Notes under the pieces: model-generated | Told to the model about the DNA's origin: nothing | What the model saw: the letters and a program-made list of their open reading frames with translations, nothing else | Databases searched by the model: none | Assembly: GCA_014687725.1 (NCBI GenBank) | Contig: GCA_014687725.1_4094.1 | DNA from: a phage | Reading direction: 5' to 3' (one strand) | Length of the DNA stretch: 64,000 nt | Translations under genes and position numbers: made by a program | Shown: positions 4,424-59,677 of the stretch, in pieces | Layout: every line of letters starts with the position of its first letter | Numbering within the stretch: the first letter of the stretch is position 1

Positions 4424-4576
4424 ATGAAACAATATAATGCTCGGATGGATGTAACTATCGGTAACGGCAAAGGTCAATTCTCTTTCAGTACTCGCAAAAG
4501 TTATACAGAAAACTTCCTGCGTAATTGTGCACTGACCGCCGCACAAATTAAACATTACTTTCAGGCTAAAAAATGA
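4424..4576 (+). CDS. hypothetical small protein (50 aa)
   Basis: ATG with SD AGGAGA; below track cut-off. Confidence 0.55.
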   Translation: MKQYNARMDVTIGNGKGQFSFSTRKSYTENFLRNCALTAAQIKHYFQAKK

Positions 4577-4662
4577 AATCATTAGCTTATTACAGTTCGG
4601 CCCTGGTCGGTGCATTGATCGCGGCATTGTTAGTAACCTATCTATTCTTTATGGTGATTTAA
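4573..4662 (+). CDS. 29-aa hydrophobic peptide (one predicted TM helix)
   Basis: ATGA overlap with upstream stop; MKSLAYYSSALVGALIAALLVTYLFFMVI. Confidence 0.4.
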   Translation: MKSLAYYSSALVGALIAALLVTYLFFMVI

Positions 4663-4800
4663 ATGAATCCTAACGGTTTAATTTACAGTACTCCTAAAAC
4701 GAAAGCAGATAAAGCGAAAGCACGTAAAGCGAAAGTAAAGGAGTACATCAAGCAAGGCATGACGCGAAAGGCGGCAATTCTAAAAGCTAAAAATAAATGA
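4663..4800 (+). CDS. lysine-rich small protein (45 aa)
   Basis: ATG directly after upstream TAA; followed by R1 terminator. Confidence 0.45.
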   Translation: MNPNGLIYSTPKTKADKAKARKAKVKEYIKQGMTRKAAILKAKNK

Positions 4801-4808
4801 AAAAAAAA

Positions 4809-4895
4809 GTGGTTGACTTCGGTCAGCCATTTTGCTATTATGTATTCATTGAGAGATAGCTCACTAGCCCACAGGGTGCATAAGTGTATCTATTG
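4809..4895 (+). repeat. R1 terminator-promoter cassette, copy A (divergent)
   Basis: hairpin TGGTTGACTTCGGTCAGCCA 4810-4829 + T-run; TTGACT 4813-4818 inside hairpin, 17-nt spacer, TATTAT 4836-4841; 3' box AGCCCACAGGGTGCATAAGTGTATCTATTG. Confidence 0.55.
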
Positions 4896-4944
4896 TATAA
4901 TGATTGAGTACTGAAAACTATTTTAAAGTATTTGATAAAAAGTA

Positions 4945-5004
4945 CTTGCATACTATCTCAATAGGCGTATAATGTTTTACATCGCAAGGGGAAACGGTTT
5001 CCCC
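4945..5004 (+). promoter_or_regulatory. class I early promoter + 5'UTR stem-loop cassette
   Basis: CTTGCA 4945-4950, TATAAT 4968-4973, hairpin GGGGAAACGGTTTCCCC 4988-5004. Confidence 0.6.
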
Positions 5005-5024
5005 TGGTAATAAGGAAACGAATC

Positions 5025-5366
5025 ATGACTATTGCAATTGCTCAATCTAACTTTGAAAACGAAATCATCGCTCAGGCACTGCGTTTAAATGATGGTCGGG
5101 CCGAAATCAATTACGGTTTCAATAGTGGTGGATGTGAAAAATATCAGTACTTTATAACTGCTGATGGCGGTGTCCTGGGCATCAATACCGTTATTGTAAA
5201 CATTCAGAAAATTAATTTCAATGATCCAGACGATAGCCAGTTTTACATCACGGGCGTAGACGTGAACTATGAGGATGACTCACTAACTGATGATCACACT
5301 GGTGAGAAGTTAGAAAGTGCATACGGTGAAGATGATTATCAGTCCGGTCCAGAAGATTTCGAATAA
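5025..5366 (+). CDS. hypothetical acidic protein (113 aa)
   Basis: ATG with SD AAGGAA. Confidence 0.7.
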   Translation: MTIAIAQSNFENEIIAQALRLNDGRAEINYGFNSGGCEKYQYFITADGGVLGINTVIVNIQKINFNDPDDSQFYITGVDVNYEDDSLTDDHTGEKLESAYGEDDYQSGPEDFE

Positions 5367-5458
5367 TATTAAAAAATAGTTTGACAATAGTTTTTAGTAC
5401 TGTATAATAGTTTACATGAAGGGGAGAAATGATTCTCCCCACTAAGAGGAAAAACAAA

Positions 5459-5671
5459 ATGGCTAATATCCGCACTGTACTGAAAAATGCAAAACAAGTT
5501 TTATTTTCTGATCATGAAAATTTCAACAAGGATATCACAGGTGTTCGGAATATCAAAGATGTAAAAAGTGTTATGGGTATCTATTGCAATATGAAACGTG
5601 TTGGCACGTTCGGCGATAAAGTACTATACCAGGCAGGGGATTACAATTTTACACTGACTATCATTAACTAA
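5459..5671 (+). CDS. hypothetical small protein (70 aa)
   Basis: ATG 5459 with SD AGAGGA; track start 5429 lies inside leader hairpin. Confidence 0.7.
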   Translation: MANIRTVLKNAKQVLFSDHENFNKDITGVRNIKDVKSVMGIYCNMKRVGTFGDKVLYQAGDYNFTLTIIN

Positions 5672-5684
5672 AAATATTATCACA

Positions 5685-5720
5685 GTACTATTGACAACGT
5701 TTGATAGTACTGGCATAATA
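5685..5720 (+). promoter_or_regulatory. class II palindromic promoter
   Basis: TTGACA 5691-5696, CATAAT 5714-5719; CAGTACTATTGACA..TGATAGTACTG. Confidence 0.55.
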
Positions 5721-5762
5721 ACTTTTATCAAGACAACGCATATTAATTTAAGGAATACTAAA

Positions 5763-5942
5763 ATGGCTATTATCGCAAAAACTGAAATCATCGGCCTGGA
5801 TTCTATCATCATGACGTTTGAAGATCAAAAAGGGATGTATGTAGTTTCCTATGGTGATTATGTTCGGGAGTATGAAACGGTAGACGAAGCCTTTGAAAGT
5901 TACATTCGCCAGGTGAATAAAGCATACGACGACTACCGCTAA
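5763..5942 (+). CDS. hypothetical small protein (59 aa)
   Basis: ATG 5763 with SD AAGGAA; track ORF started in promoter. Confidence 0.6.
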   Translation: MAIIAKTEIIGLDSIIMTFEDQKGMYVVSYGDYVREYETVDEAFESYIRQVNKAYDDYR

Positions 5943-5961
5943 AATATATTACCAGTACTAT

Positions 5962-5997
5962 TAAATCTATTGACAATGATTGATAGTACAGTATAAT
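5962..5997 (+). promoter_or_regulatory. class II palindromic promoter
   Basis: TTGACA 5970-5975, TATAAT 5992-5997. Confidence 0.5.
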
Positions 5998-6041
5998 AAG
6001 TTTTATAAACAGTAGTTAACTTAACCTAAGAGAGAAACAAA

Positions 6042-6185
6042 ATGATCGCACTGGATTCATTCATCGACGCAGTACTGGCAAAAACTGGCGAGGATCTGAC
6101 CGCAGAACAATACGCGATGATCGAGCAATGCCAGCAAAACGGTAAATCGGTGAAAGATACTGTTAAGATTATCCGCAAGATGTAA
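6042..6185 (+). CDS. hypothetical small protein (47 aa)
   Basis: ATG with SD AAGAGAGA; below track cut-off. Confidence 0.55.
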   Translation: MIALDSFIDAVLAKTGEDLTAEQYAMIEQCQQNGKSVKDTVKIIRKM

Positions 6186-6191
6186 GAATAT

Positions 6192-6220
6192 AGCCCACTG
6201 GTTAACGCTGGTGGGCTTTA
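6192..6220 (+). terminator. terminator-like hairpin containing a Chi octamer
   Basis: stem AGCCCAC/GTGGGCT with 12-nt loop, weak T-tract; GCTGGTGG 6207-6214. Confidence 0.4.
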
Positions 6221-6290
6221 ATCATTTACCCTATACAATGCCAGTACTAAACCGTTTAACTCGTTAGAATGCATTACAGGACGTTTAACA

Positions 6291-6488
6291 ATGATTAGCA
6301 TGAAATCAGTACAAAAACAAATTGATACATTATCAAAAATTAAACGTAAACAATACTCATTAGAATATACAATCAATGGTAACTATCATCTAATGAAAGA
6401 GAATAATTTCATAGTCATTGATGAATCATTGCAAGTTATTAGTATAGTACTGAAAGCATTAATCAATGACAGAAAAAAGTTAAAATAA
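6291..6488 (+). CDS. hypothetical small protein (65 aa), weak
   Basis: Track ORF; poor SD, very AT-rich. Confidence 0.35.
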   Translation: MISMKSVQKQIDTLSKIKRKQYSLEYTINGNYHLMKENNFIVIDESLQVISIVLKALINDRKKLK

Positions 6489-6492
6489 TCTA

Positions 6493-6521
6493 TTGACAAA
6501 TTATGCCAGTACTGGCATAAT
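6493..6521 (+). promoter_or_regulatory. class II-type promoter
   Basis: TTGACA 6493-6498, 17-nt spacer, CATAAT 6516-6521. Confidence 0.55.
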
Positions 6522-6583
6522 ACTTACATCAAGACGAGAACGTCACTAACCCATAGGGTGCACAAATGTAGCTGTCTAATATT

Positions 6584-6614
6584 GATCAAAAAATGATCTG
6601 ATCAATACTTGATC
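6584..6614. promoter_or_regulatory. GATC cluster within repeated TGATCA motifs (4 GATC in 31 bp)
   Basis: GATC at 6584, 6595, 6600, 6611; sits in a 330-bp gene-free region. Confidence 0.5.
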
Positions 6615-6819
6615 AATTTGCGTAAAGTAGTATAATTCTATGCAGTTGGTTAGACGAAAGGTTATGATTAGTAGTGGAAGTGTATAAAAATTTTCATGGT
6701 GTGGTGATCCGCACATATGGGGATGAATATGTCGTGTCGTATGGATTGGAAAAAGTAAGAACAAGTAATATACTTGTCGCGTTACAGTACTATAGTATTT
6801 TTATAATGAGGTTAAAATA

Positions 6820-7077
6820 ATGGCTGTAGGATTCACGAAAGATGGGGCCGAGCAAGACGAGATTAACGCAGTGATTCAGGCCGCTGTTAACCACGCTAGA
6901 ACGCAAATTAACGCACAAATAGAATCACTGATACATTGCCTCGACTGCGGCGATATAATCCCTGAGAAACGACGCCAGGCCGTTAAGGGATGTAAGTACT
7001 GCATAACTTGCCAGGAGGATCATGATAGTACTTTTAAACGTCCCCCGCGTAATTGTTGGCATAGATCTATGAGATAA
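6820..7077 (+). CDS. DksA/TraR-family C4 zinc-finger protein
   Basis: CLDCGDIIPEKRRQAVKGCKYC matches the TraR/DksA zinc-finger signature (CxxC...GxxIPxxRRxA...CxxC). Confidence 0.75.
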   Translation: MAVGFTKDGAEQDEINAVIQAAVNHARTQINAQIESLIHCLDCGDIIPEKRRQAVKGCKYCITCQEDHDSTFKRPPRNCWHRSMR

Positions 7078-7083
7078 AAAGTA

Positions 7084-7111
7084 TTGACAGTACTGAAAGA
7101 TAGTGTATAAT
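7084..7111 (+). promoter_or_regulatory. sigma70-like promoter
   Basis: TTGACA 7084-7089, 16-nt spacer, TATAAT 7106-7111. Confidence 0.5.
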
Positions 7112-7140
7112 ATTTTATATCTTAACTGAGGATTGAAATC

Positions 7141-7497
7141 ATGGGAATACAACATATCACGCGTACTACTGACAATGGCGAGATCACTGGCTATCAAGTA
7201 CAGGGCAAAGTAGCACAATTGCAGTACTGGTTTGTTAAACGTGGAATCATTGCACCGGATCTTGATTATGACCGTGTAGCGTTTATTGATTCTCTTTATG
7301 TTGATCCTGATAGTCGGGGCAATGGTGAAGGTAACGAATTAATGAATGCCTTTATTGATGCCGCCGATGATTCAGATTGTATCATTTTAGAATGCGATAC
7401 GGGAGAAGATAACGCCTTTAATCTTAAAGAATGGTACGAAGGTTTCGGATTCGAGGTACTGATCGATAGTGAATATCCTATCATGATTTTATCATAG
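7141..7497 (+). CDS. GNAT-family acetyltransferase-like protein (118 aa)
   Basis: VDPDSRGNGEGNELMNAF resembles the acetyl-CoA-binding R/QxxGxG/A loop; family call tentative. Confidence 0.6.
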   Translation: MGIQHITRTTDNGEITGYQVQGKVAQLQYWFVKRGIIAPDLDYDRVAFIDSLYVDPDSRGNGEGNELMNAFIDAADDSDCIILECDTGEDNAFNLKEWYEGFGFEVLIDSEYPIMILS

Positions 7498-7575
7498 TAC
7501 TTGCATTTAGTTTTCAGTACTGTTATAGTACTTACATCAAGGGGAAACATCTTCCCCTACTAAGAGGAAATAAAA

Positions 7576-7764
7576 ATGGAAAACTTATCAAGTATTTTAG
7601 TACAAGATGATTTCGGTAATCCTGGAAGTGCTATCATTGTTCGGGGTAATAAAGCAACATTTGTTATTGCTGGTGGACCTGTACAGCGTAGCATTAAAAA
7701 TAATGCTGTTACCATTAATAATGTACGCTATCGCTTAGATAAAGAATTGATTCATAAACTTTAA
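7576..7764 (+). CDS. hypothetical small protein (62 aa)
   Basis: ATG with SD AAGAGGAA behind class I cassette. Confidence 0.65.
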   Translation: MENLSSILVQDDFGNPGSAIIVRGNKATFVIAGGPVQRSIKNNAVTINNVRYRLDKELIHKL

Positions 7765-7848
7765 AAAGTATTTGACAATAGATTATAGTACTGTATAATA
7801 AGTTACATGAAGGGGTGAAATGATTCTCCCCACTAAGAGGAAAGAAAA

Positions 7849-8061
7849 ATGCAAGGTCAACTAATCGTTCGTAAATGGTCTGATACTAACGAAAAACCGT
7901 GGGATGTACAATACATCGGACCGGATGGGGTATCACGTTATCAGCCTGGCGTAACGCATAGTACTGAGCAATTCGCAAACGCTCACCGCGAACGCCTGTT
8001 AGAATCCATGAAACAGGGATTCTGTGAAAAATTCATTCAAGATCATTGGCTGAAAGATTAA
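7849..8061 (+). CDS. hypothetical small protein (70 aa)
   Basis: ATG with SD AAGAGGAA behind class I cassette. Confidence 0.7.
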   Translation: MQGQLIVRKWSDTNEKPWDVQYIGPDGVSRYQPGVTHSTEQFANAHRERLLESMKQGFCEKFIQDHWLKD

Positions 8062-8078
8062 TATAAGGAGTACAGCTT

Positions 8079-8171
8079 ATGCAAATGAATCCGATGATTA
8101 TTGTTTTAGCTGTACTTATGATCATTCATGCAATAGTAGAAGTATTAACGCAATCAGGAGTAATAAAATGA
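8079..8171 (+). CDS. 30-aa hydrophobic peptide
   Basis: ATG 8 nt after SD AAGGAG; MQMNPMIIVLAVLMIIHAIVEVL...; below track cut-off. Confidence 0.45.
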   Translation: MQMNPMIIVLAVLMIIHAIVEVLTQSGVIK

Positions 8172-8341
8172 TTCAAGTAGAATTATCAGTACTGAAAGAT
8201 CTGTTTTATCGGTTAGGTACTACTGGCGAGTATCCTAAAAGTGATACCGCAAAACTTTTTGTATCACTCGACTTATGGCAACGCGAACAATTAGTAATGT
8301 CCTGGCGTAAAGGTAAAGCAGATAGCGAGGTGAAAGCATGA
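8168..8341 (+). CDS. hypothetical small protein (57 aa)
   Basis: ATGA overlap with upstream stop; below track cut-off. Confidence 0.5.
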   Translation: MIQVELSVLKDLFYRLGTTGEYPKSDTAKLFVSLDLWQREQLVMSWRKGKADSEVKA

Positions 8342-8487
8342 AAGAATTCTTATTCGAAGTAGTGTTTCAAGGTGTCGGTAGTAACCAACTGATTCGCTCA
8401 AGTGGTTACAATGTTAACCAGGCATGGAATAACATTAAACAAATGTACCCGAACGCTATCACCTATCGCAACCCGAAACAAGTTTAA
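8338..8487 (+). CDS. hypothetical small protein (49 aa)
   Basis: ATGA overlap with upstream stop; followed by R1 terminator. Confidence 0.5.
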   Translation: MKEFLFEVVFQGVGSNQLIRSSGYNVNQAWNNIKQMYPNAITYRNPKQV

Positions 8488-8494
8488 AAATAAT

Positions 8495-8585
8495 TGAAAA
8501 AGGGATTGACTCCGGTCAGTCCCTTTGCTATTATATACGCATAGAAACAAATCAGCCCACAGGGTGCATAAATGTATCTATTGTT
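8495..8585 (+). repeat. R1 terminator-promoter cassette, copy B
   Basis: A-run + hairpin GGGATTGACTCCGGTCAGTCCC 8502-8523 + T-run; TTGACT 8506-8511, 17-nt spacer, TATTAT 8529-8534; 3' box ..AGCCCACAGGGTGCATAAATGTATCTATTG. Confidence 0.6.
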
Positions 8586-8812
8586 TGCTGGTGGCTAGTA
8601 CTATCAAGTACTGAAAACTATTTTTAAAAAAGTACTTGCATTGTACTTAGAATCAAGTATAATGTTTTACATCAGGACGGGGAACGAAACAAGTAACCCC
8701 GTTAAGTAGTCCAGGAGTAAGACATAAGAAAACCTCCCCTGATAAAATAGTTTGACAATAGAAAGTAAACGAGTATAATACTTACATCAACCACTGATAA
8801 GGAAACATTAAA

Positions 8813-9088
8813 ATGCGGATTCTACTGACAGCTAACGAAATCGAACAAGTACTGACTACTAACCTGGAAGACTGGAAACGTGAAGCAGATATCCAGGCGG
8901 TTCAACGGCTTAACGATGAGTTAACGCCGGATGACTTAAGCAAGATTGTAGATCCTCAATTCTACGAAGATATCCACGACACCGCGTTAAGCGTCGAGGA
9001 TGTACTAGATAAGCACTACATTGATATTGATTTGCAGGTTTACGGTCGTAAAAACTTTATCACTATTCACGACATTTACAATAATTAA
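8813..9088 (+). CDS. hypothetical protein (91 aa)
   Basis: ATG with SD AAGGAA; two promoters upstream. Confidence 0.7.
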   Translation: MRILLTANEIEQVLTTNLEDWKREADIQAVQRLNDELTPDDLSKIVDPQFYEDIHDTALSVEDVLDKHYIDIDLQVYGRKNFITIHDIYNN

Positions 9089-15812: not shown

Positions 15813-16009
15813 AAATGCGTATTTTAAATAAAGAAGAATATCAATCACTGTTACGTAAAAACTTCACAAAGATTTATAATACAGACACACACGTAGAACG
15901 AATGGAGTTATACCTTTTGATTACATTGGGAACAAACTATCAGGGTAGATGGGTGTGGCAATATATGGATACATTGAAAAATAAAATATTGTCCACGAGG
16001 AAACAATGA
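15809..16009 (+). CDS. family A paralog
   Basis: motif LGTNYQGR; ATGA stop/start overlap. Confidence 0.65.
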   Translation: MKMRILNKEEYQSLLRKNFTKIYNTDTHVERMELYLLITLGTNYQGRWVWQYMDTLKNKILSTRKQ

Positions 16010-18798: not shown

Positions 18799-18799
18799 C

Positions 18800-48017: not shown

Positions 48018-48026
48018 GAATGAAAT

Positions 48027-50292: not shown

Positions 50293-50334
50293 TAAAAACG
50301 CACATGGAGTGCATTAGAAGATCAAGGATAGATC

Positions 50335-50808
50335 ATGGAGATTAAAACTGTTGAAAATGGGAAAATTGATGACATTTTAGAGTTGGACGCATTCAAAGTT
50401 CATGATATAATGTTTAATGTGAAGGACATTATTCAATGTCTATTTTTGTGTAGCAAGACAATGCATGATTTTTTTCACAACCCAAATACTAACGTTTTTA
50501 TACTAACAATCAGTACTGAAAACTCGTTTATCATGGGTATGCCTATGAGTACAAATGAACAATATATTGATTGTGTTATTCGTAATAACGATAGTATTAC
50601 GCCACAATCTGAAGTACGTAAAAAGAAAAACACCTACACAATCAAAGATGATAAAATTATGATGTGCTGTAGTAAAGGGTTTATATTAGATAATTTTATC
50701 GTCAAAGACAGTTATCACGACTTTAAAGTGTCTGAAAATCAATCCAATGTAGTTCTTTATGCGAGTGACATAGAAAGTCTAACAGTTAAAGATCCCAGTT
50801 TGGAGTAA
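50335..50808 (+). CDS. hypothetical protein (157 aa)
   Basis: Track ORF; SD AAGGA. Confidence 0.6.
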   Translation: MEIKTVENGKIDDILELDAFKVHDIMFNVKDIIQCLFLCSKTMHDFFHNPNTNVFILTISTENSFIMGMPMSTNEQYIDCVIRNNDSITPQSEVRKKKNTYTIKDDKIMMCCSKGFILDNFIVKDSYHDFKVSENQSNVVLYASDIESLTVKDPSLE

Positions 50809-50810
50809 GT

Positions 50811-50942
50811 ATGGCTAAGAAAGTAAACAATTTCGTACAGAAACACATGAATGAGTTTAACAAGCCTCAGACACATGTGGATCGTAAAAAAGAAATGAAA
50901 AATGGTAAAGTAAAACACAAGTCGAGATTTATTCTCGACTAA
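50811..50942 (+). CDS. basic small protein (43 aa)
   Basis: ATG with SD GGAG 7 nt upstream; MAKKVNNFVQKHMNEFNKPQTHVDRKKEMKNGKVKHKSRFILD; below track cut-off. Confidence 0.45.
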   Translation: MAKKVNNFVQKHMNEFNKPQTHVDRKKEMKNGKVKHKSRFILD

Positions 50943-50971
50943 TTTTTTGTCTAAATTTATGAGGATTGTAT

Positions 50972-51820
50972 ATGTTAGATATTTCAGATTTTCTTAATTT
51001 TAAAAAGTATTCAGTACTTGAACATATCAACGAATTTCTGAATTCTACTACACCATTTGGTATCAGTACATCAGATGCATACGATGGATATACAATCTTC
51101 CCATACAATGACTTTCAAATTTCCGTCAAAAAAGGTTTTACAAAAGAAGTTGCAATTCGTGATGTAGTAATGTATAGCGATTCTTCTATTTCTTACTGTC
51201 ATGACGTGAACAAGTTTGAATCTCTTTCAACACCTAATTGTTCATACTACAAATCCCATGACACGATGATGTATAAAGAACAACATATCAATGGTGTTTC
51301 GTTCTATAAAACTAGCAGTGATAAATCATATACATCTAGAGATGATTTTGGAAAATACACATGTACTATGCACACGGATAATGAAAAAACAAATTACACT
51401 CATTCATTCGAGTCCAAATTCCAAGAGAGTGAAGTTTCAAATATCACTATACAAGAACAGGTTTCAGAAGGCATTGTATATCGTAGTACTGCATTCTTTC
51501 GCATGAAAGATATTGCCACAGGCAGACCAATGATGTACAATATTGACATATACATGAAAGGTGATATATCCGAAGTAGTGATTAGTACTGGTTATCGTGA
51601 AAAATATACAGTTACAATGGAATCACCAGATGCATCATTAGTTCACCTCTTTAACAATTTATATACATTCCAATTCGAACTTAGTTTCGATCCAAATGAA
51701 TATCAAATATTTGATATATTAAAAAGTAATATTATTAATAAGTTAGAATATTACTACAAGTTAGGTGGTAAGATGTGCATAGTTAATACTATGTTACATA
51801 ACATAAAAGAAACATTATAA
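50972..51820 (+). CDS. hypothetical protein (282 aa)
   Basis: ATG 50972 with SD GAGGA (track TTG 50966). Confidence 0.7.
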   Translation: MLDISDFLNFKKYSVLEHINEFLNSTTPFGISTSDAYDGYTIFPYNDFQISVKKGFTKEVAIRDVVMYSDSSISYCHDVNKFESLSTPNCSYYKSHDTMMYKEQHINGVSFYKTSSDKSYTSRDDFGKYTCTMHTDNEKTNYTHSFESKFQESEVSNITIQEQVSEGIVYRSTAFFRMKDIATGRPMMYNIDIYMKGDISEVVISTGYREKYTVTMESPDASLVHLFNNLYTFQFELSFDPNEYQIFDILKSNIINKLEYYYKLGGKMCIVNTMLHNIKETL

Positions 51821-51836
51821 ATCTGGAGGATTTGGT

Positions 51837-52130
51837 ATGGATACTAAATTCAAAATTATTTTTAAAACTAAGCCGTATATTCCACATACAGCAGAACGTT
51901 TTATACCACATGGTGCTGAGGAAATTATTCACCAAGATGGTACTAAGTTATACCTTGTTCCTTGTTCTTATGAACGTGCAGTAGAAATGTTACTAATGAA
52001 TGCTAGACTATGCAAAAACAAGTACATTAGTTACCTATACAATGAACATATTTTAGATTTCAATGATGAAAATATGTTCATTCTAGCAATTGAGGATTTT
52101 GATAACTGGTACAATATTATTAAAATCTAA
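51837..52130 (+). CDS. hypothetical protein (97 aa)
   Basis: ATG with SD GGAGGA. Confidence 0.65.
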   Translation: MDTKFKIIFKTKPYIPHTAERFIPHGAEEIIHQDGTKLYLVPCSYERAVEMLLMNARLCKNKYISYLYNEHILDFNDENMFILAIEDFDNWYNIIKI

Positions 52131-52140
52131 TGAAAATAAT

Positions 52141-52175
52141 GTGAACATATTAGATTCTTGTGATATAATGTTCAC
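52141..52175 (+). promoter_or_regulatory. extended -10 promoter bracketed by 8-bp inverted repeat (operator-like)
   Basis: GTGAACAT 52141-52148 / ATGTTCAC 52168-52175 flank TG-n-TATAAT 52161-52169. Confidence 0.45.
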
Positions 52176-52201
52176 ATCTTTTTTTGATAACGGAGATATA
52201 G

Positions 52202-52588
52202 ATGAATACAAGTTCAGTCCTAAAAGCAATTGGTGGTGTTTTACTCATTGAAGTAAAAGGTGAGCCAAAGCTATGCTGTTTAGAAGATATGAAGAATACA
52301 AAACACTTCAGTACTGGTCAGATTTTCAATGCCATTCGTATTCTAAATGACAAATCCATTGCTGATTATGGAAAAGTTTGGCCTGTATATCAAAATGCTG
52401 ATGGTGATATCAGTACTGATTGGAAAACAATTGAGGCGGTACGACAAAGTTGTGAGAGTGATTGGGACTTCATTGTTGAAGTTTGTGATCAACTACAAGA
52501 AGATGTTCCAGAAATTGTTGAACGAAAAGAAGTTCTAGCACGACTTGAAAAATTCCGTCACGGAACACTACAGTATGACACAATCTAA
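52202..52588 (+). CDS. hypothetical protein (128 aa)
   Basis: ATG with SD GGAGA. Confidence 0.65.
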   Translation: MNTSSVLKAIGGVLLIEVKGEPKLCCLEDMKNTKHFSTGQIFNAIRILNDKSIADYGKVWPVYQNADGDISTDWKTIEAVRQSCESDWDFIVEVCDQLQEDVPEIVERKEVLARLEKFRHGTLQYDTI

Positions 52589-52637
52589 TCTGCTTATTAA
52601 AAATATCTAATTAACATTATATAAAAGGAATTTAAAA

Positions 52638-52943
52638 ATGGAAGACAATGGAATGAAATTTGATATGTTTGAAGGTGTACCAGAGTTCGATTTCAACAAA
52701 CTTGAAGAAGGTGAGGAATCAGAACTAGTTAGTGTTACACTTAAAGCAGATTCTAAAAAGAAATATTCATCATCAGTACGTTCACGTTCACAAGAAGAAT
52801 ACGAAACATTTATTGAAAGTATTCATTATGAAACATTCCATCACGCAGATGGAACTCCATATGAAGTACGTGTAACAGTACTGAAGCCTGAAGTAAATCC
52901 AATGGAAAATCTACGTCCTGTTTACTGCTGGGCAAGTCACTAA
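52638..52943 (+). CDS. hypothetical acidic protein (101 aa)
   Basis: ATG with SD AAAGGAA. Confidence 0.65.
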   Translation: MEDNGMKFDMFEGVPEFDFNKLEEGEESELVSVTLKADSKKKYSSSVRSRSQEEYETFIESIHYETFHHADGTPYEVRVTVLKPEVNPMENLRPVYCWASH

Positions 52944-52951
52944 TAAACCAA

Positions 52952-52983
52952 AGGACGGGATTTGTTATCTCGTCCTTTTTTTG
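52952..52983 (+). terminator. rho-independent terminator
   Basis: ~10-bp stem AGGACGGGAT/ATCTCGTCCT + T7. Confidence 0.75.
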
Positions 52984-52994
52984 TCTGGAGATGT

Positions 52995-53849
52995 ATGAAA
53001 CTTTATCTAATCGTTGACTACAATAAGGATTATGCTGGTAACTTCACCGAAGATTCGGATGGATATTGCACATCGACTAATGTCAATGTACGTAGCAGTA
53101 GTGCTCATGAACATGAATCTTGTAAAAATCTAAAAGATTTTATCGCATACCGAGCATTTGAAAAGAACTTCTGCCGCAGTAGATATTCGAAGTTTGAGTA
53201 CCCGTTAATTGATGTTCCTGATGATTTAATGTTCCAGTTAATGCTGACTGGAGTTCAAGATTATGATTACATAGCGTATAATCATATTACTAAGAAAATT
53301 TATATTGGTACATCATCACATGACACTTCTATGTATGCATCATGCCCAGATGATCGAATGAATGATAGAAAATCATACTATAGTGGGTCAGTTGGTTTAA
53401 ATGATTCATTAAATAAAAATTCATTCTTTGAGTATGTTTATGATTACCATCATGAGAAAAAAGAACGTGAAGATTACTGTATAGCAATTGATAGTACTAA
53501 TGGTTATGAAGACGTGAAAGAAGCACTTATGCCGTACATTATTGAAAAGTACTACAAAGATTTTCAGTACTGTAGTAATTTTCTAATCAGAAATTCTATT
53601 ATAATCGGTCGCCAATCTAGTGCATACTCTCAGTACTATAATGATTCACCAGTAGCATCGGCAAATGAAATGTGTGATATTTTACAAATTCCACGTGAAG
53701 ATATGGCATTCATTTTTACATCTTTTATTGAAGATGATGAGTTGTATATTAAAAATAAACACCGTTTCATGCCAAGCAAGATTGAGGTTATTCGAAGTTT
53801 TAGTGTTGATATACTAACAAATTTCACAGAAAAAACCGAATATAACTGA
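52995..53849 (+). CDS. hypothetical protein (284 aa), weakly family B-like
   Basis: ATG 52995 with SD GGAG (track 52962 overlaps terminator); segment DDLMFQLMLTG. Confidence 0.65.
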   Translation: MKLYLIVDYNKDYAGNFTEDSDGYCTSTNVNVRSSSAHEHESCKNLKDFIAYRAFEKNFCRSRYSKFEYPLIDVPDDLMFQLMLTGVQDYDYIAYNHITKKIYIGTSSHDTSMYASCPDDRMNDRKSYYSGSVGLNDSLNKNSFFEYVYDYHHEKKEREDYCIAIDSTNGYEDVKEALMPYIIEKYYKDFQYCSNFLIRNSIIIGRQSSAYSQYYNDSPVASANEMCDILQIPREDMAFIFTSFIEDDELYIKNKHRFMPSKIEVIRSFSVDILTNFTEKTEYN

Positions 53850-53878
53850 GACAAATGATAAGTTAATGATATAATATA

Positions 53879-53912
53879 AGGTGACAACATAATATGTTGG
53901 TCACCTTTTTTA
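53879..53912 (+). terminator. rho-independent terminator
   Basis: 12-bp stem AGGTGACAACAT/ATGTTGGTCACCT + T6. Confidence 0.8.
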
Positions 53913-53913
53913 A

Positions 53914-54527
53914 TCCTGAAAGGTTCCCATAAGGAAATGATTAAAAGCCTAATCCACTCGAAAATGTAGAGGGTAGATGAGTAGTCCTTTCAGTACGAAC
54001 AGCAGATGAAACCCGTTAGATGATGGCATAGTTTGAACCACTCACGGCAATGCGGCTGTATAAAGAACTCCAATAGGATAAAGAGAGTTCCTCGATAGAC
54101 ATATAAGGATCGCACCTTACCAATTATCTAAGGGAGATTTCATAAGAAATATGCGGTCGGAATTATACAATATAGTTGCGTCCAAATTTTGTGAAATCAA
54201 ATACAAGTACTGGTCATATGGTATTTGTATTATGTGTCGGGATGTTTAAGACCGACGACCGTTGCTACAAGAACCGCGATAGAGAGAAACAGAGCAACCC
54301 GCTTTCGTCTCGTAAGAGAATTCGTGATATGAACTATGTGAAGGCCACCAGCGTCAAATTTTTTTGTTCTTTCCCCTGCGGGGGGGATGAAATATGCTCA
54401 AGCAAACCCCGTCAATATTAATTAAAAGAAAATAGTACTTGTAGAATTAGACATGCGTAGCATGATAATTCTACTGATGTTGATGCAATCAACGTCACGT
54501 ATATTCATTGATGTTTCCATAGGAATA
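53914..54527. other. ORF-poor, GC-richer intergenic region (candidate structured RNA / origin-type element)
   Basis: ~600 bp with no convincing ORF on either strand; multiple short hairpins; G7 tract 54380-54386; minus-strand Chi 54345-54352. Confidence 0.4.
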
Positions 54528-55073
54528 ATGATGGCATTTATTAGAAAAGAAAAAACTGTTACTTATAAAACTTTGAATTTTGATGATTGCATTAATCAAT
54601 CACAAGACGAAGATATCTTTACTGGATATGTGGTTATTAAAGAAAAAGGATGCATTTCTTATATAAAGGAATTACAAAATGGAATTGAAGTGACTTCAGT
54701 TAAATTACTTCCTACTCAAAAACCAACAATATCAAAAGCCCAGTATGGTAATTATTTTGAAGAAAGATATAGTAATAATTCAATAAGTGTTAAGGCTCAT
54801 ATTATTAAAGGAGAACTAGAAGGAGAATATAGAAAATACAACCCACAAGGAAAATGTGTTTGGGTTAAATACTTCAATTCAGGATATGATGTAACATCTG
54901 AAATTATAGAATTCTTGGGTTTAAAATGTACCCCTGAGACTATTCATGATTACAAGTTCAATACTGAAGAAGAGTTTAATCTGATGATGCGTTACGGTTC
55001 ACATTTTAAATTTTTATATGAATATAACATTGACAGTAGTACTTTTGATAAGATAGTACACAACTGTCTCTAA
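54528..55073 (+). CDS. hypothetical protein (181 aa)
   Basis: ATG 54528 with SD AGGAA (track start 54453 upstream); repeated G-x-Y/W-x-Y-N-x-G-like units, weakly MORN-like. Confidence 0.6.
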   Translation: MMAFIRKEKTVTYKTLNFDDCINQSQDEDIFTGYVVIKEKGCISYIKELQNGIEVTSVKLLPTQKPTISKAQYGNYFEERYSNNSISVKAHIIKGELEGEYRKYNPQGKCVWVKYFNSGYDVTSEIIEFLGLKCTPETIHDYKFNTEEEFNLMMRYGSHFKFLYEYNIDSSTFDKIVHNCL

Positions 55074-55089
55074 CAAAAGGAATTATATA

Positions 55090-55611
55090 ATGTCGAAGAA
55101 GGATGCTTCGAAAAAACATTCAGTACATTTCAGTACTGGAAAGGACAACTGGACAACTCCCAAAGATTTCTTTGAAGATTTGGATGAGTTATGGGGATTT
55201 ACACTTGATGCTGCTTGTGTTGATGAGACTGCATTGTGTGATAACTATTTTACACCTGATGATAATTCTCTTGAACAAGACTGGGGAAAAAATATTGTTT
55301 GGTTAAATCCCCCATATAGTGATTTAAAAACTTGGTTAGCCAAGGCAGTAGATGCGTATAATAAAGGTGCTACAGTACTGATTCTAGTACCATCCAGGAC
55401 TGATACAATAGCATTTCAGGAATATGCAGCCAAAATATGTGATTGTATTTGTTTTATCAAAGGTAGATTACGTTTTGGTATTCCAGAAGAACCTGATAAG
55501 AAAACAGATTCAGCACCATTTCCTTCGTGTCTTATAGTCCTTGATAAGTACCTCACTACTGCTAAAATTAATTATCTTAAATCTCTCGGATTGGTGATGA
55601 AGAATCTATGA
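55090..55611 (+). CDS. DNA N6-adenine methyltransferase (phage Dam-type, NPPY family)
   Basis: WTTPKDFF, LNPPYS, VPSRTDT, GRLRFG blocks; SD AAAGGA. Confidence 0.85.
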   Translation: MSKKDASKKHSVHFSTGKDNWTTPKDFFEDLDELWGFTLDAACVDETALCDNYFTPDDNSLEQDWGKNIVWLNPPYSDLKTWLAKAVDAYNKGATVLILVPSRTDTIAFQEYAAKICDCICFIKGRLRFGIPEEPDKKTDSAPFPSCLIVLDKYLTTAKINYLKSLGLVMKNL

Positions 55612-56141
55612 AAGAAACATGTGTATTAACGTTTGGTCGTATTAATCCTGTACATCGTGGACATGGTTTAGTTTTTGAAAAGGCCAAAACATTACAAGAA
55701 CAGTACAATGCTGATTTAAAAATATATCTAAGCACCAGTACTGACAATATAAAAAACCCACTCCCACCTGAACTAAAAATGTATTATACAGAGGGATTCT
55801 ATCCTTCAGTGCAAGAGAACATCTACACAGAAGACAATCTATTTGATATAATGAGAGAACTGGATGGAAAGTACTTAGATGTTCTTTTCATTTGTGGTTC
55901 TGACCGTATTGATTCTTTTCAAAAAACTCTTGACATGTACAATGGTAAGTTGTATAATTTTTGTAGTATAAAAGCAATTCAGGCAGGTATTGACCGTAAT
56001 GTAAGTCAATATAGCTCAACACAAATGCGTAACTTCGCAAAAAATGAAGATTTTGATAGTTTTCGTGAGTTTTTACCTGGAAATGACGAGGACTTAAAAA
56101 TACAATTATTTGAAGACGTTATAAAATACATGAGGAAATAA
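55608..56141 (+). CDS. HxGH-motif nucleotidyltransferase (cytidylyl/adenylyltransferase superfamily, NMN adenylyltransferase-like)
   Basis: N-terminal TFGRINPVHRGH = (T/H)xGH signature; ATGA overlap with methyltransferase gene. Confidence 0.7.
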   Translation: MKETCVLTFGRINPVHRGHGLVFEKAKTLQEQYNADLKIYLSTSTDNIKNPLPPELKMYYTEGFYPSVQENIYTEDNLFDIMRELDGKYLDVLFICGSDRIDSFQKTLDMYNGKLYNFCSIKAIQAGIDRNVSQYSSTQMRNFAKNEDFDSFREFLPGNDEDLKIQLFEDVIKYMRK

Positions 56142-56143
56142 TT

Positions 56144-56437
56144 ATGTCAGTACTGTTCAAAACCAATCCAGTACTTTGGGTTCAAAATGAGCAATCAGGA
56201 TTTCGTTCCATCCATGTTGAATACAAAGGTAATACTGTAGTTGCAATTATTGCTAACAAAACTCTAGGAAACTGGACTGCACAGGTTGTTCCTATGGGAT
56301 ATTCTTACACATCTGATGAGGTACAATTCCTGGCTGAACTATATCGCCAAGTGCCGTTTATCATTAATGTACTAGAAGGTAATGATACATTATCACATGC
56401 AGATGTGATTAATTTTCTTGGAAACTTGCATGTGTGA
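56144..56437 (+). CDS. hypothetical protein (97 aa)
   Basis: ATG with SD GAGGAA. Confidence 0.65.
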   Translation: MSVLFKTNPVLWVQNEQSGFRSIHVEYKGNTVVAIIANKTLGNWTAQVVPMGYSYTSDEVQFLAELYRQVPFIINVLEGNDTLSHADVINFLGNLHV

Positions 56438-56717
56438 TGAAATAAATCTTACAGGATATTTTTTACAAGAATCAATGATTAAATTTAGTGAAAAATTTTC
56501 AGTACTGGATGGTATCGAAATGTGGCATGTCAAACCACTGTTCCACACTTTCAGTAAAGAGCACAAAATGTTATTGACTGAAGCGAGTAAATCAAATAAC
56601 ATATGTGAAATCAAAATTGGTGTAAATGTCTATAAAGGGATGGTTATCTTTTTTGACAATAACAGCAACTACTTTTATATTGTTAAGGAGCATTACGTTG
56701 ACAAATACAAATACTAA
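56430..56717 (+). CDS. hypothetical protein (95 aa)
   Basis: ATG 56430 (track TTG 56418). Confidence 0.55.
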   Translation: MCDEINLTGYFLQESMIKFSEKFSVLDGIEMWHVKPLFHTFSKEHKMLLTEASKSNNICEIKIGVNVYKGMVIFFDNNSNYFYIVKEHYVDKYKY

Positions 56718-57312
56718 TACATACTTCCGTTATCTTCGCTTAGGTCTTTCCCTACGTCCGATCCGTGGAAAGTGCGATTCACTCGCTGACCTTGACTATG
56801 CATATGCATTACATCATGAAGGTGTACAGTATGTATTGGGTGATTATGGTGAATTTGAAGAAACAAATGACAGTACTGGAATTAATGCTGGTGTAGAAAA
56901 TCTTAACAACATTGCTAACAGTTCTCGCCATGACATTGTGTTACAGATTCAAAACTTTATTGAGCAGCACACAGGTAAACGTGTTTGGTGCTATGTCGGC
57001 ACTGATGCACAAATGTCAATTTCATTCGGTAACGATGAAGGATATGTTGCACAGCTTATTATGGATTTTGAATCTGAAGAGAAGTTTTTAGAATTCAAAG
57101 AAAAGATTATTCAGTCACTTGTTGATATGGGTATCCCCGAAGATAAAATGCCAGAAGTTCAAAACATTGATGAATTTGTTTTGATTCCATCTGATGAGAA
57201 ATATGATGCAATGTTTACTGCTCTTAATATTCCAGGAGTTATTGTGGAGTACTTTGATGATGGTGATGATAGTATCTATATCGATCTAGATGACGATGAC
57301 GACGATGAATAA
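56698..57312 (+). CDS. hypothetical protein with poly-Asp C-terminus (204 aa)
   Basis: TTG 56698 with SD AAGGAG 7 nt upstream (track ATG 56626 would overlap upstream gene by 90 nt); tail DLDDDDDDE. Confidence 0.55.
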   Translation: MTNTNTNTYFRYLRLGLSLRPIRGKCDSLADLDYAYALHHEGVQYVLGDYGEFEETNDSTGINAGVENLNNIANSSRHDIVLQIQNFIEQHTGKRVWCYVGTDAQMSISFGNDEGYVAQLIMDFESEEKFLEFKEKIIQSLVDMGIPEDKMPEVQNIDEFVLIPSDEKYDAMFTALNIPGVIVEYFDDGDDSIYIDLDDDDDDE

Positions 57313-57318
57313 TGTACA

Positions 57319-57347
57319 TAGCCCGACATAAGTTCGGGCTATTTTTG
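57319..57347 (+). terminator. rho-independent terminator
   Basis: stem TAGCCCGA/TCGGGCTA + T5. Confidence 0.8.
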
Positions 57348-57358
57348 TAAGGGGATAT

Positions 57359-57634
57359 ATGAATTATAAAGTTCTACAATATACATACAGTGTTTTGTTT
57401 GATTTACATCACAATGGAAGATATCTCAATACAATACGAGAAAACACATTCACTCATACTATCTGGATTAATCACTTAATAATGATACGTGAATATTTTG
57501 TTAATAGTGAGATAATCATTCGTGGTAAAAAACAGAAGATAGAACAAGTTAATAGTTTTGGTGGTAAATTAGTGCTATCATTTATAGATAGTAATACTAA
57601 TGAAAGATATAGTATAGATTTGGTGGACATATGA
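57359..57634 (+). CDS. family C paralog
   Basis: N-terminus MNYKVLQYTYSVLFDL; SD GGGGA. Confidence 0.65.
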   Translation: MNYKVLQYTYSVLFDLHHNGRYLNTIRENTFTHTIWINHLIMIREYFVNSEIIIRGKKQKIEQVNSFGGKLVLSFIDSNTNERYSIDLVDI

Positions 57635-57897
57635 ATTATAAAGATTTCCTACTAACATACAAGATTATTCAAGATTTAGCACACGACAATGATAGCCCTA
57701 GTCTAGAAGACACATGCACTGAAATGATTCATACGATTCGTGGTAAGATTAAAAAAAAATTCAGTACTGTTATTATTGGTGATGACCATGCAGAATTTTC
57801 TGATATAATCATTAGACGTGATGGTAAAGTTGAGGTTCAGTACTACACTGATTTTGGATTTACCAGTATTCCGTTGGAGATATTCCCTTGGGATTAA
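57631..57897 (+). CDS. family C paralog
   Basis: N-terminus MNYKDFLLTYKIIQDL; ATGA overlap. Confidence 0.65.
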   Translation: MNYKDFLLTYKIIQDLAHDNDSPSLEDTCTEMIHTIRGKIKKKFSTVIIGDDHAEFSDIIIRRDGKVEVQYYTDFGFTSIPLEIFPWD

Positions 57898-58199
57898 ATT
57901 TAAATGATATACAATTCACTTATAAGATCCTATATGATTTGTATGATGTATACCTTGTTAGTAACAACATAGGTTCACATAACCGATCCAAAGAACAACC
58001 ATTTATTGATTTATATATTGAGTACTTAGATTCAGTAGGTGAATATATAAAAAAGAATTACAGTACTTTTATCGATGGAAATGATAAATTCGATTTCTAT
58101 GGTGTGCAATCATATAATGGTATAATCCATGTTCAATTTCAGGAAATAACCGATAGGGGATTTATCGAGATTAAAGTTGTGAAGTTGGTGAATTTATAA
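57888..58199 (+). CDS. family C paralog
   Basis: LNDIQFTYKILYDLYD; TTG start with SD GGAGA, no in-frame ATG nearby. Confidence 0.5.
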   Translation: MGLNLNDIQFTYKILYDLYDVYLVSNNIGSHNRSKEQPFIDLYIEYLDSVGEYIKKNYSTFIDGNDKFDFYGVQSYNGIIHVQFQEITDRGFIEIKVVKLVNL

Positions 58200-58209
58200 G
58201 AGGTTACAT

Positions 58210-58521
58210 ATGTTATTAAATGATATACAATTCACATACAAATTTTTGTATATCCAATACGCTACGGTTGATGCTGGAGAATATCTCTACAGTGAAATCT
58301 ATCGTTCGGTATGGATAAAGTTTTTGGATGAATTACATGAATATTACCATGATTTGTGTATAGTTCGTGATAATAAAATATACAAATTCCGCGATATTGT
58401 TAGTCATAGCGGTAAGCTACGATTGGAATTAAGTACTGATAGTGATGTTGATTGGATTGGTGTAAATTTACTGGAGTTGGAGAATGAAAAACAACTTAAA
58501 GGAAATACAAGTATTTTATAA
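58210..58521 (+). CDS. family C paralog
   Basis: MLLNDIQFTYKFLYIQY; SD AAGAGG. Confidence 0.65.
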   Translation: MLLNDIQFTYKFLYIQYATVDAGEYLYSEIYRSVWIKFLDELHEYYHDLCIVRDNKIYKFRDIVSHSGKLRLELSTDSDVDWIGVNLLELENEKQLKGNTSIL

Positions 58522-58768
58522 ATTCTTATACTTATCATATGTAAAAGATGAGTACTATGAAAGTGTGTATTATTTTTTATGGCAACATTACCGTACTATA
58601 GTAAGAGATTTATATATAGGAAAATCTATCATATACAATGGTGAAAAATGTATATGTACTGATGTCGTTAGTTTTAATGGTTCTTTAACACTGTGTTTCA
58701 GATGCGATAATAATAGTGGGTCATTTTCATTAAACGTATATCAGTTAGAAGGAATAAATTTTGAATAA
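58484..58768 (+). CDS. family C paralog
   Basis: LKEIQVFYKFLYLSY; 38-nt overlap with upstream gene. Confidence 0.55.
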   Translation: MKNNLKEIQVFYKFLYLSYVKDEYYESVYYFLWQHYRTIVRDLYIGKSIIYNGEKCICTDVVSFNGSLTLCFRCDNNSGSFSLNVYQLEGINFE

Positions 58769-58961
58769 ATGTCCATATTGTAACAGTACTCAATTAGCTC
58801 GTTTCCGTTTAGATTCAGACTGGGCGACTGGTGCTGGTGATTTCTTCCCTATTAATGATGATGCGGAATACACCGAAGAACAGCACAAAGATTTTGATAA
58901 ATCATGGCGACCTGACATTGAGTGCATTTATTGCCTTAATTGTGAGCGTGTTCATGACTAA
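58761..58961 (+). CDS. zinc-ribbon small protein (66 aa)
   Basis: CPYC...CLNC pattern; TTG start with SD AAGGA. Confidence 0.5.
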   Translation: MNKCPYCNSTQLARFRLDSDWATGAGDFFPINDDAEYTEEQHKDFDKSWRPDIECIYCLNCERVHD

Positions 58962-59217
58962 AGCTGAACTAATAGTTCATACATATAAAATGATATCAAG
59001 TACTGAGTTATCATATAGTGCAGATAATCCAGTACTGGATTATTTTGTTGAATTATTGAAAGAGCATTATATTGGTAAATCACTGAATATTAATAATATT
59101 AATTTCACTATAACGGATGTGGGACCAGGAAAAAACGTACTAATTGTATGTATTACTTCAACTGGTAACCCATTATACCCAATATCAGTAATTTTTGAGG
59201 TATTAGGTGATTTATGA
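58954..59217 (+). CDS. family C paralog
   Basis: ATG 58954 (track 58831 is out-of-frame overlap of zinc-ribbon gene); shares layout with 59214 copy. Confidence 0.55.
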   Translation: MTKAELIVHTYKMISSTELSYSADNPVLDYFVELLKEHYIGKSLNINNINFTITDVGPGKNVLIVCITSTGNPLYPISVIFEVLGDL

Positions 59218-59504
59218 ATATCATATTAATACAAAAAACATATACTCTACTGATGAAAGAATATACTAATACTTATGATGAAAAGTGCAGTGCAAATCAT
59301 AATATGTATGAATTCATTACTCAAGAGTACAGGGATTATATATATGCTGTGTTAGTTGGTAGATATTTCAGTACTAGAAAATACCCAAAACTTCAAATAG
59401 TTGATGTTTCTTTTTATTTCAATGGTCATATTACTATTCATAGTTTAGACCAAGATTCAACAACGTACTTAAACTTTTCATTTGATGAGGTAATATTTTT
59501 ATGA
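59214..59504 (+). CDS. family C paralog
   Basis: MNIILIQKTYTLLMKEY; ATGA overlap. Confidence 0.65.
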   Translation: MNIILIQKTYTLLMKEYTNTYDEKCSANHNMYEFITQEYRDYIYAVLVGRYFSTRKYPKLQIVDVSFYFNGHITIHSLDQDSTTYLNFSFDEVIFL

Positions 59505-59677
59505 GAACAGTATTTTTTATCTGGAGTCTTTTTTCATTGGCAGTACTGACAGTATGTGGGATTTGTTTCCTTTCATCAATTAATACTTGGTATATCAATT
59601 TACTATTTCCATTTGTCGGTGTTGGTTTAGGGTTTACTTTGCATAGTGTATGTAAGGATTACAATGAGAACAAATGA
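59501..59677 (+). CDS. small membrane protein (58 aa, two predicted TM helices)
   Basis: ATGA overlap; FFIWSLFSLAVLTVCGICFL and INLLFPFVGVGLGFTL segments; below track cut-off. Confidence 0.45.
   Translation: MRTVFFIWSLFSLAVLTVCGICFLSSINTWYINLLFPFVGVGLGFTLHSVCKDYNENK

Follow-up and report, generated by a model that had tools for sequence, protein, structure and literature searches.

The closest described counterparts of the locus treated here are the promoter-early stem-loop (PeSL) cassettes of T4-type phages, which mediate the modular shuffling of small ORFans (Arbiol et al. 2010, PMC2839356; Comeau et al. 2014, PMC4122927), and the regions of RpoD-like promoters and short hypothetical open reading frames (ORFs) that the CBB paper proposed as the early genes of Rak2-like phages (PMC5259590). 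We analyzed a 64,000-nt stretch of phage DNA (contig GCA_014687725.1_4094.1 of assembly GCA_014687725.1), hereafter the window, in which an initial annotation made from the letters alone had listed eleven micro-ORFs. These are labeled A to K and all lie on the forward strand, with A to I within positions 2374-8487, J at 50811-50942 and K at 59501-59677. Taken as a whole, the evidence is very probably best explained by eleven bona fide Asteriusvirus genes, of which A to I belong to a cassette array of roughly 16 kb in a terminal repeat.

The array resembles the PeSL regions in that a near-perfect sigma70 promoter and a conserved stem-loop are repeated among small ORFans in a hyperplastic region, and in that the cassettes of A and B and the slot of G coincide with insertions, deletions or replacements between close relatives. 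It differs in that the PeSL stem-loop is described as a terminator joined to a promoter, whereas the hairpin of the window lies past the -10 box and has no U-tract; separate terminators follow only some operons in the window, and the phage belongs to the Rak2-like jumbo phages and thereby falls outside the T4 group proper. The pre-early genes of phage T5 offer a second likeness, being small genes with host-type promoters inside a long direct terminal repeat. The T5 repeat is about 10 kb, compared to about 21 kb here, no homology to A1, A2 or dmp was seen, and phages of the Asteriusvirus type are not known to transfer their DNA in two steps.

The identity of the phage was evaluated by a megablast search with window positions 4000-9000 and 48000-60000. 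It was found that 121Q, PBECO4, G17, SHEFM2K, UB, vB_Ec-M-J and others match at 90-98% identity; these relatives make up the genus Asteriusvirus, Rak2-like jumbo myoviruses of ~350-380 kb. This similarity places the window in a 121Q/PBECO4/G17-like jumbo coliphage of this genus. The vB_Ec-M-J DNA that matches A to I sits within a 21,525-bp feature annotated there as 'Direct Terminal Repeats', and window coordinates are shifted relative to vB_Ec-M-J by the same distance, about 5.55 kb, at A to I and at J. Therefore, the window corresponds to the left end of the genome and runs collinearly with it, and the end of the repeat is expected near window position 16 kb, where the GC content falls from ~0.38 to ~0.31. 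A terminal repeat of 20,993 bp, confirmed by restriction digests, was reported for the relative fEgEco12 (PMC13070987). As a separate observation, there is a compositional break at about 16000-22000 of the window, with a peak in AT skew (0.16-0.21) close to the mapped end of the vB_Ec-M-J repeat.

All eleven ORFs were found with the ends, lengths and ATG starts given in the initial annotation. Because small ORFs are frequent by chance (118 of at least 25 aa in 10 kb), each was compared with the orthologous DNA of 8 to 11 relatives. Every listed ORF was intact in each relative possessing the segment, and all indels were in frame (6 nt in E and 6 nt in K), the sole other apparent indel being an alignment artefact at the A-run after the stop codon of E. 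Pooled over the set, the variable columns were distributed 67:38:159 over codon positions 1:2:3 (chi-square p=2e-20), with ratios of non-synonymous to synonymous polymorphism (pN/pS) of 0.07-0.35. With 11 relatives, the excess at position 3 reached significance ORF by ORF (binomial p 0.0001-0.02) in A, B, C, D, E, F, H and I. About 55 decoy ORFs of at least 25 aa in the 2-9 kb interval, taken from other frames and the antisense strand, were mostly broken or had no position-3 bias, the exceptions being antisense frames in register with a real gene, and thirteen ORFs of at least 60 aa showed the same pattern as the micro-ORFs. These comparisons show that the eleven micro-ORFs are protein-coding genes under purifying selection.

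Nine of the eleven ORFs have a Shine-Dalgarno (SD) sequence with a duplex energy of -5.3 to -8.8 kcal/mol against the 3′ end of 16S rRNA; for comparison, an energy of -4 or lower is found at only 17.5% of the ATGs of the window, and the median for genes of at least 100 aa is -5.8. The two others, D (-2.5 kcal/mol) and E (-2.8), lie at ATGA and TAAATG junctions, so the earlier statement that most of the ORFs have a good SD or start/stop coupling was borne out, as were the coupled strings, with ATGA at C/D, G/H, H/I and between the upstream gene and K, and TAAATG at D/E. The weak SDs of D and E, together with these junctions, fit reinitiation after the upstream stop codon. E also has a GGTGAT that is able to pair with the extended anti-SD.

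Strong sigma70-type promoters are concentrated at the left end, with 28 of the 32 in the first 16 kb of the window and 4 in the remaining 48 kb, and eight perfect (12/12) TTGACA-16-TATAAT promoters occur within 10 kb. The units of the first 16 kb share one layout, in which a near-consensus promoter is followed by a GC hairpin (usually), an SD and one to four small genes, and an intrinsic terminator (hairpin-T) closes some units, not all. The conserved hairpin, of the GGGGAGAAAnnnTTCTCCCC type, follows most promoters by a few bases, lies in the 5′ untranslated region and has a folding energy between -9 and -17 kcal/mol. In the cassettes of A, B and F, the micro-gene is the sole forward ORF between two consecutive promoters; therefore, their cassettes would be empty without these micro-genes. 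Judged from promoter quality and position, early transcription of A to I by the host RNA polymerase is well supported. In this scheme the polymerase would read the cassettes immediately upon DNA entry, the 5′ hairpin might stabilize or insulate the short mRNA, and ribosomes would initiate at the SD of the first gene of each unit, the downstream cistrons of C-D-E and G-H-I being reached partly by termination-reinitiation, as the overlaps and the weak SDs of D and E suggest.

The abundance of short ORFs raises the question of whether the micro-ORFs are chance frames in untranslated leaders and spacers that look conserved because the relatives are little diverged. The relatives differ by merely 2-15% here, 118 ORFs of at least 25 aa in 10 kb leave ample room for such frames, and annotation of the PHANOTATE type also calls ORFs that are clearly non-coding, such as a 33-aa ORF at 4813-4914. 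However, chance frames would not be expected to show the codon-position bias, the low pN/pS, the in-frame indels and the intact orthologues described above when the decoys are broken or unbiased; J, C and G, when compared between genera, still preserve their protein sequence or their hydropathy at identities of 40-70%, and the promoters of A, B and F would have nothing to express. We consider this alternative to be extremely improbable, and the ORFs are treated as genes in what follows.

Some points weigh against the interpretation as a whole. No transcriptome, ribosome profiling data or proteome of these genes was found in the literature; the mass spectrometry reported in the phAPEC6 study concerned virion-associated proteins only (PMC7247149). 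At the level of single ORFs, the statistics are thin for D (12 variable columns) and for the close copies of G (8). None of the ORFs significantly matched a characterized family in Pfam, NCBIfam or PHROGs, and when the AlphaFold2 (AF2) models of A and F were compared with the PDB in Foldseek, no match was better than E=2; what is proposed about function is inferred at the level of protein class. A search near J and K for T4-late (TATAAATA) or CBB-type (TGAAACG...TATA) promoters found none, and both genes sit in tightly packed operons beyond the promoter array. Because J and K are outside the array and have no such promoter motif, the label 'early' is not extended to them. The early region to which the initial annotation referred is supported for A to I, on the strength of the promoter array and the terminal repeat.

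Table 1. Micro-genes A to K and associated expression signals in the window. Variable columns are given for codon positions 1:2:3.
Feature	Position	Strand	Description	Family	Variable columns	pN/pS
Promoter, cassette A	2296..2323	+	sigma70-type, TTGCAA-16-TATAAT, followed by 5′ GC hairpin			
A	2374..2517	+	47-aa basic microprotein; SD GAGGAA		3:3:16	0.13
Promoter, cassette B	4117..4144	+	sigma70-type, with hairpin; single-gene cassette			
B	4196..4342	+	48-aa basic microprotein		2:3:9	0.21
Promoter, operon C-D-E	4346..4373	+	sigma70-type, with hairpin			
C	4424..4576	+	50-aa basic microprotein	phrog_7119	3:2:14	
D	4573..4662	+	29-aa single-pass hydrophobic peptide; ATGA overlap with C		3:1:8	
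E	4663..4800	+	45-aa Lys-rich microprotein	phrog_29913	11:5:26	
Terminator, operon C-D-E	4806..4833	+	intrinsic terminator hairpin; also annotated as terminator in G17			
Promoter, cassette F	5970..5997	+	perfect TTGACA-16-TATAAT; single-gene cassette			
F	6042..6185	+	47-aa acidic microprotein	phrog_34103	2:1:10	0.10
Promoter, operon 7849-8061/G/H/I	7772..7799	+	perfect sigma70			
G	8079..8171	+	30-aa hydrophobic peptide; SD TAAGGAG, strongest of set			
H	8168..8341	+	57-aa microprotein, near neutral; ATGA overlap with G	phrog_10572	16:8:27	
I	8338..8487	+	49-aa basic microprotein; ATGA overlap with H	phrog_37188	8:3:20	0.07
Terminator, operon G-H-I	8499..8526	+	intrinsic terminator			
J	50811..50942	+	43-aa very basic microprotein	Pfam DUF7230; phrog_1359		
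K	59501..59677	+	58-aa hydrophobic protein; one clear and one marginal transmembrane segment			0.23

The start of A was evaluated because the mechanical ORF begins at 2344. It was found that the extension is intact in only two of six orthologues and spans the 5′ hairpin, whereas the ATG at 2374 and its SD are kept in all orthologues, which shows that the start chosen in the initial annotation is right. The description of A as Cys-rich was more generous than its real content of three Cys and one His; C4, C21 and H24 are invariant, C6 is nearly so, and these residues would be compatible with a small zinc site. The AF2 model of A had a predicted local distance difference test (pLDDT) score of 78.7, and that of F, at pLDDT 88.7, was a three-helix bundle. 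A may resemble the HNH-associated CxC...CxxH zinc knuckle, and F may resemble a helix-turn-helix protein.

The single-gene cassettes are distributed unevenly. A is absent from PBECO4 and SD-1_S14 and has a homologue with 81% identity in phage EmilieFrey (Justusliebigvirus), and the B cassette is found in some relatives and is absent from 121Q, PBECO4 and SD-1_S14. The cassettes behave like exchangeable modules: even close relatives differ in whether they have A, B and G, and A and C also occur in unrelated coliphages.

Homologues of C were found in 163 phage records, among them about 124 rV5-like phages, at about 47-49% identity, and Klebsiella jumbo phages, at 40-61%. In both groups C stands alone, and in rV5 it lies among annotated sigma70 promoters. 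The PHROG matches of C, E, F, H and I (Table 1) are full-length, with E-values of 1.6e-27 to 3.6e-40. In IMG/VR, scans with C and H gave no match other than the 121Q genome, and the apparent resemblances of C to SAM_SMF (20.6 bits, cut-off 27) and of E to aureocin A53 (16.5 bits, cut-off 27) were rejected as noise. It was also observed that several records labeled 'Campylobacter phage' (C9, C12 and others; about 130-138 kb) contain rV5-like coliphage sequence, including the C homologue, the identity of which is that of E. coli rV5-like phages; this suggests mislabeled or contaminant public records.

D was found in 34 Asteriusvirus records with at least 93% amino acid identity, and all changes are conservative (L/V, V/I, S/T, K/R). 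It consists of K2 followed by a transmembrane (TM) segment that continues up to the C terminus. E begins right after the stop codon of D, and its 6-nt in-frame indel occurs in some relatives. The C/D junction could also be read as a single gene, in which slippage by -1 during translation or transcription, on the A6 run (GCTAAAAAATGA), would yield a membrane-anchored C-D fusion, given that D lies in the -1 frame relative to C, six A residues are present at the junction and the SD of D is weak. However, ATGA is an ordinary coupling signature that recurs at G/H and H/I in the absence of A-runs, the run does not conform to the canonical X XXY YYZ heptamer, and the C homologues of rV5-like and Klebsiella phages have no D-like partner. 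The probability of a fusion appears to be close to negligible, and C and D are regarded as separate, coupled cistrons.

The promoter at 7772 precedes gene 7849-8061 and then the string G-H-I, which the terminator at 8499 closes. Changes are few among the close copies of G, and their excess at position 3 has no individual significance. A diverged copy in phage Turkey5, MHMNPFIVVIAIMMAVQAVLEYLSKAGVI, is 62% identical in nucleotides, with 14 of 29 residues identical and differences of 12:3:18 over the codon positions; it retains the length, the MNP and GVI motifs and E21, its hydropathy profile correlates with that of G (r=0.90), and its own promoter-hairpin-SD cassette precedes it. The conservation of this copy is hard to explain unless the G peptide itself is selected. 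In vB_Ec-M-J, WPEC5, Ecwhy_1 and JNE01, the 93-nt G is exactly replaced by an 86-nt promoter-hairpin-SD cassette before H. Viewed over the relatives, the slot 8062-8171 has three states: G with an SD only, a promoter-hairpin with diverged G, and a promoter-hairpin alone. The best family match of G, the 30-aa NCBIfam family KPN_01571, was rejected as noise (17.5 bits, cut-off 35).

These data bear on the possibility that D and G are coupling or spacer cistrons, the translation of which would supply E and H with ribosomes while their peptides would have no function. D and G are the shortest of the set (29-30 aa) and lie between cistrons with start/stop overlaps, and G is dispensable in the four relatives in which a promoter-hairpin-SD cassette serves H directly. 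On the other hand, the protein sequence of D is maintained in its 34 genomes while synonymous sites vary, the Turkey5 copy of G keeps its length, motifs and hydropathy at 62% nucleotide identity behind its own promoter, and H has a strong SD of its own (-6.9 kcal/mol) and so does not depend on G. We regard a pure spacer role as decidedly unlikely, and selection on the D and G peptides themselves remains the preferred interpretation.

The statement that several of the micro-ORFs are hydrophobic applied to three of the eleven. The maxima of the 19-residue Kyte-Doolittle mean were 2.69 for D, 2.67 for G and 2.35 for K, and the other eight are not hydrophobic: A, B, C, E, I and J have isoelectric points of at least 9.7, with F being acidic and H close to neutral. 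K, proposed to have two TM helices, has a clear first one; the second is marginal, since no 19-residue window starting after residue 11 reaches the threshold of 1.6, and a hand calculation gave a mean of about 1.3 for this segment. K overlaps the upstream gene by ATGA and the downstream gene by 14 nt. It was found in 36 records, all Asteriusvirus, at 62-100% amino acid identity, with both hydrophobic segments conserved and the cysteines not. The similarity of K to DUF5422 was rejected as noise (16.2 bits, cut-off 25), and K64-1 gp591 (68 aa, two TM segments), which has a position like that of K, shares no sequence similarity with it.

TisB is a 29-aa type I toxin, and class II holins and pinholins have two TM segments. 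By this comparison, D, G and especially K resemble, in size and topology, membrane-damaging toxins or holin/antiholin-like factors that time lysis, and K lies outside the early promoter array. However, D and G are uniformly hydrophobic rather than amphipathic, with a single basic residue each, at the N-terminal end in D (K2) and at the C-terminal end in G (K30). Among the Pfam and NCBIfam families of small bacterial membrane proteins and type I toxins, D matched none. K matched no holin family, its neighbors have no lysis domains and include no identifiable endolysin, and its second segment is marginal. A toxin or lysis role is therefore considered to be quite unlikely.

The alternative favored here for D, G and K is an association with host membrane proteins. 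In size class and in having a single uncharged TM helix, D and G resemble KdpF, AcrZ, MgrB and CydX, to which they have no homology. KdpF (29 aa), AcrZ (49 aa), MgrB (47 aa) and CydX (37 aa) are bacterial small membrane proteins that modulate larger complexes, the commonest known action of such peptides. The single-pass D and G, and K as a probable helical hairpin of the inner membrane, would most likely dock on larger host membrane complexes rather than act as enzymes. The initial annotation saw small membrane peptides of phage early regions as candidate superinfection exclusion or host-takeover factors, an idea that concerns three of the eleven genes, D, G and K; T4 Imm, Sp and other phage exclusion proteins are likewise small early inner-membrane proteins. 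With 83 aa and 97 aa, respectively, Imm and Sp exceed D, G and K in length, and none of the three matched a characterized exclusion protein in Pfam, PHROGs or NCBIfam at thresholds. That any of them is an exclusion or host-membrane takeover factor seems possible but doubtful.

The basic soluble proteins A, B, C, E, I and J would most likely bind host nucleic acid or acidic protein surfaces. We tentatively propose, as a possibility that is well below even, that D, G and possibly K represent new families of early phage membrane microproteins that dock on host inner-membrane machinery and that J (DUF7230) is a separately conserved nucleic-acid- or ribosome-binding microprotein of Rak2-like and T4-like phages. 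Docking may, for example, block a transporter, the DNA entry of competing phages or a membrane-bound defense sensor, and D, G and K may be traded among phages as promoter-bounded cassettes within the terminal repeat.

J differs from the other genes in its wide distribution. It starts 2 nt past the stop codon of an upstream 157-aa gene and matched DUF7230 in hmmscan with 62.4 bits (E=4.3e-17, cut-off 27) over profile positions 1-39 of 42. The consensus of an alignment of 43 sequences is NFVAKHMxxFNKPxTHxDRKKxxKxGxxKHK. Syntenic J genes of 46-56 aa were found in K64-1, Munch, fHe-Yen9-04, pEa_SNUABM_12 and GAP32, which represent at least three other named genera; in these five phages J lies between genes of ~158 aa and ~290 aa and has the motif NNxVAKHMxxFNKxxTxVDxKKExKxGKxKHK. 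A tblastn search found J in 87 phage records, among them T4-like Aeromonas phages. The J homologue of the T4-like phage Aeh1 is flanked by gp52 and asiA, and that of the unclassified Pseudomonas phage Milchi adjoins a uvsY-like gene.

An exhaustive HMMER search with J gave about 50 representative clusters, almost all of which are stand-alone, unnamed proteins of 40-75 aa; a word-indexed homologue search gave merely 2 clusters. One 816-aa match with 13 repeats looks spurious. A likeness of J to ArfA or ribosomal protein bS21 was not supported, as there was no Pfam match to either at E<=1. The DUF7230 profile matched no PDB sequence even at E<=10, and no paper mentioning DUF7230 was found in the literature.

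The initial annotation described the micro-ORFs as missed genes, which is true only under its own 60-aa cut-off, as all eleven are annotated in at least one public relative. The RefSeq record of 121Q annotates A, C, E, F, G, H, I and K (gp280, 286, 287, 291, 298-300, 430), phAPEC6 annotates C, D and E (gp521c-519c), SHEFM2K annotates A to I, WPEC5 annotates D, and SD-1_S14 annotates D and G. The annotated hypothetical proteins of Asteriusvirus are the same genes as the micro-ORFs, with 90-100% amino acid identity and the same order. The micro-ORFs are already known as annotated hypothetical proteins, and the finding is ordinary in kind.

Reference annotation is inconsistent for the shortest genes, with D, G and J absent from some RefSeq or GenBank records: D is uncalled in 121Q, PBECO4, G17, vB_Ec-M-J, JNE01 and Turkey5, G is present yet uncalled in PBECO4 and phAPEC6, and J is uncalled in PBECO4 and RaK2. 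The analysis demonstrates that sequence alone can suffice to validate ORFs of 29-58 aa in phage early regions, the kinds of evidence that worked being cassette anatomy, SD or start/stop coupling, and substitution patterns over codon positions. A functional screen of small proteins could reasonably include D, G, K and the widely conserved J, although the results suggest no specific new mechanism.

An ORF-free conserved element was observed in three copies in the window (4813-4935, 8506-8630 and 6493-6600). Each copy contains a sigma70-like promoter, which in two copies lies inside the hairpin that terminates the upstream operon, and a box, (A/G)CCCA(C/T)AGGGTGCA(T/C)AA(A/G)TGTA(T/G)CT, lies about 30 nt past the promoter. 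A 30-mer of the element is present twice, compared to 0 expected, and the RNA fold of 4801-4945 had z=-3.0. An Rfam search of the window, the element included, gave no match. A 33-aa PHANOTATE coding sequence is annotated over the element; its substitution pattern is not coding-like. The element is a candidate small RNA or regulatory site.

In vB_Ec-M-J, an extra 924-nt 'endonuclease' gene lies between the K-containing operon and a conserved 242-aa gene. This gene is absent from the window (about 59950-60000) and from 121Q, and it is probably a homing-endonuclease insertion.

A scan of the gaps for ATG ORFs of 20-59 aa preceded by an SD recovered eight of the eleven micro-ORFs and added only three candidates, which indicates that the list of the initial annotation is nearly complete. 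The added candidates, at 17071-17229 (52 aa), 24072-24233 (53 aa) and 31260-31337 (25 aa), lie between larger forward genes. An unlisted 48-aa ORF at 6674-6820, with a GTG start in the window, forms a TAATG junction with a gene for a DksA-like zinc-finger protein at 6820-7077; it is a 147-nt coding sequence in 121Q (gp293) and several relatives, was intact in all three orthologues found and had variable columns of 4:2:7.

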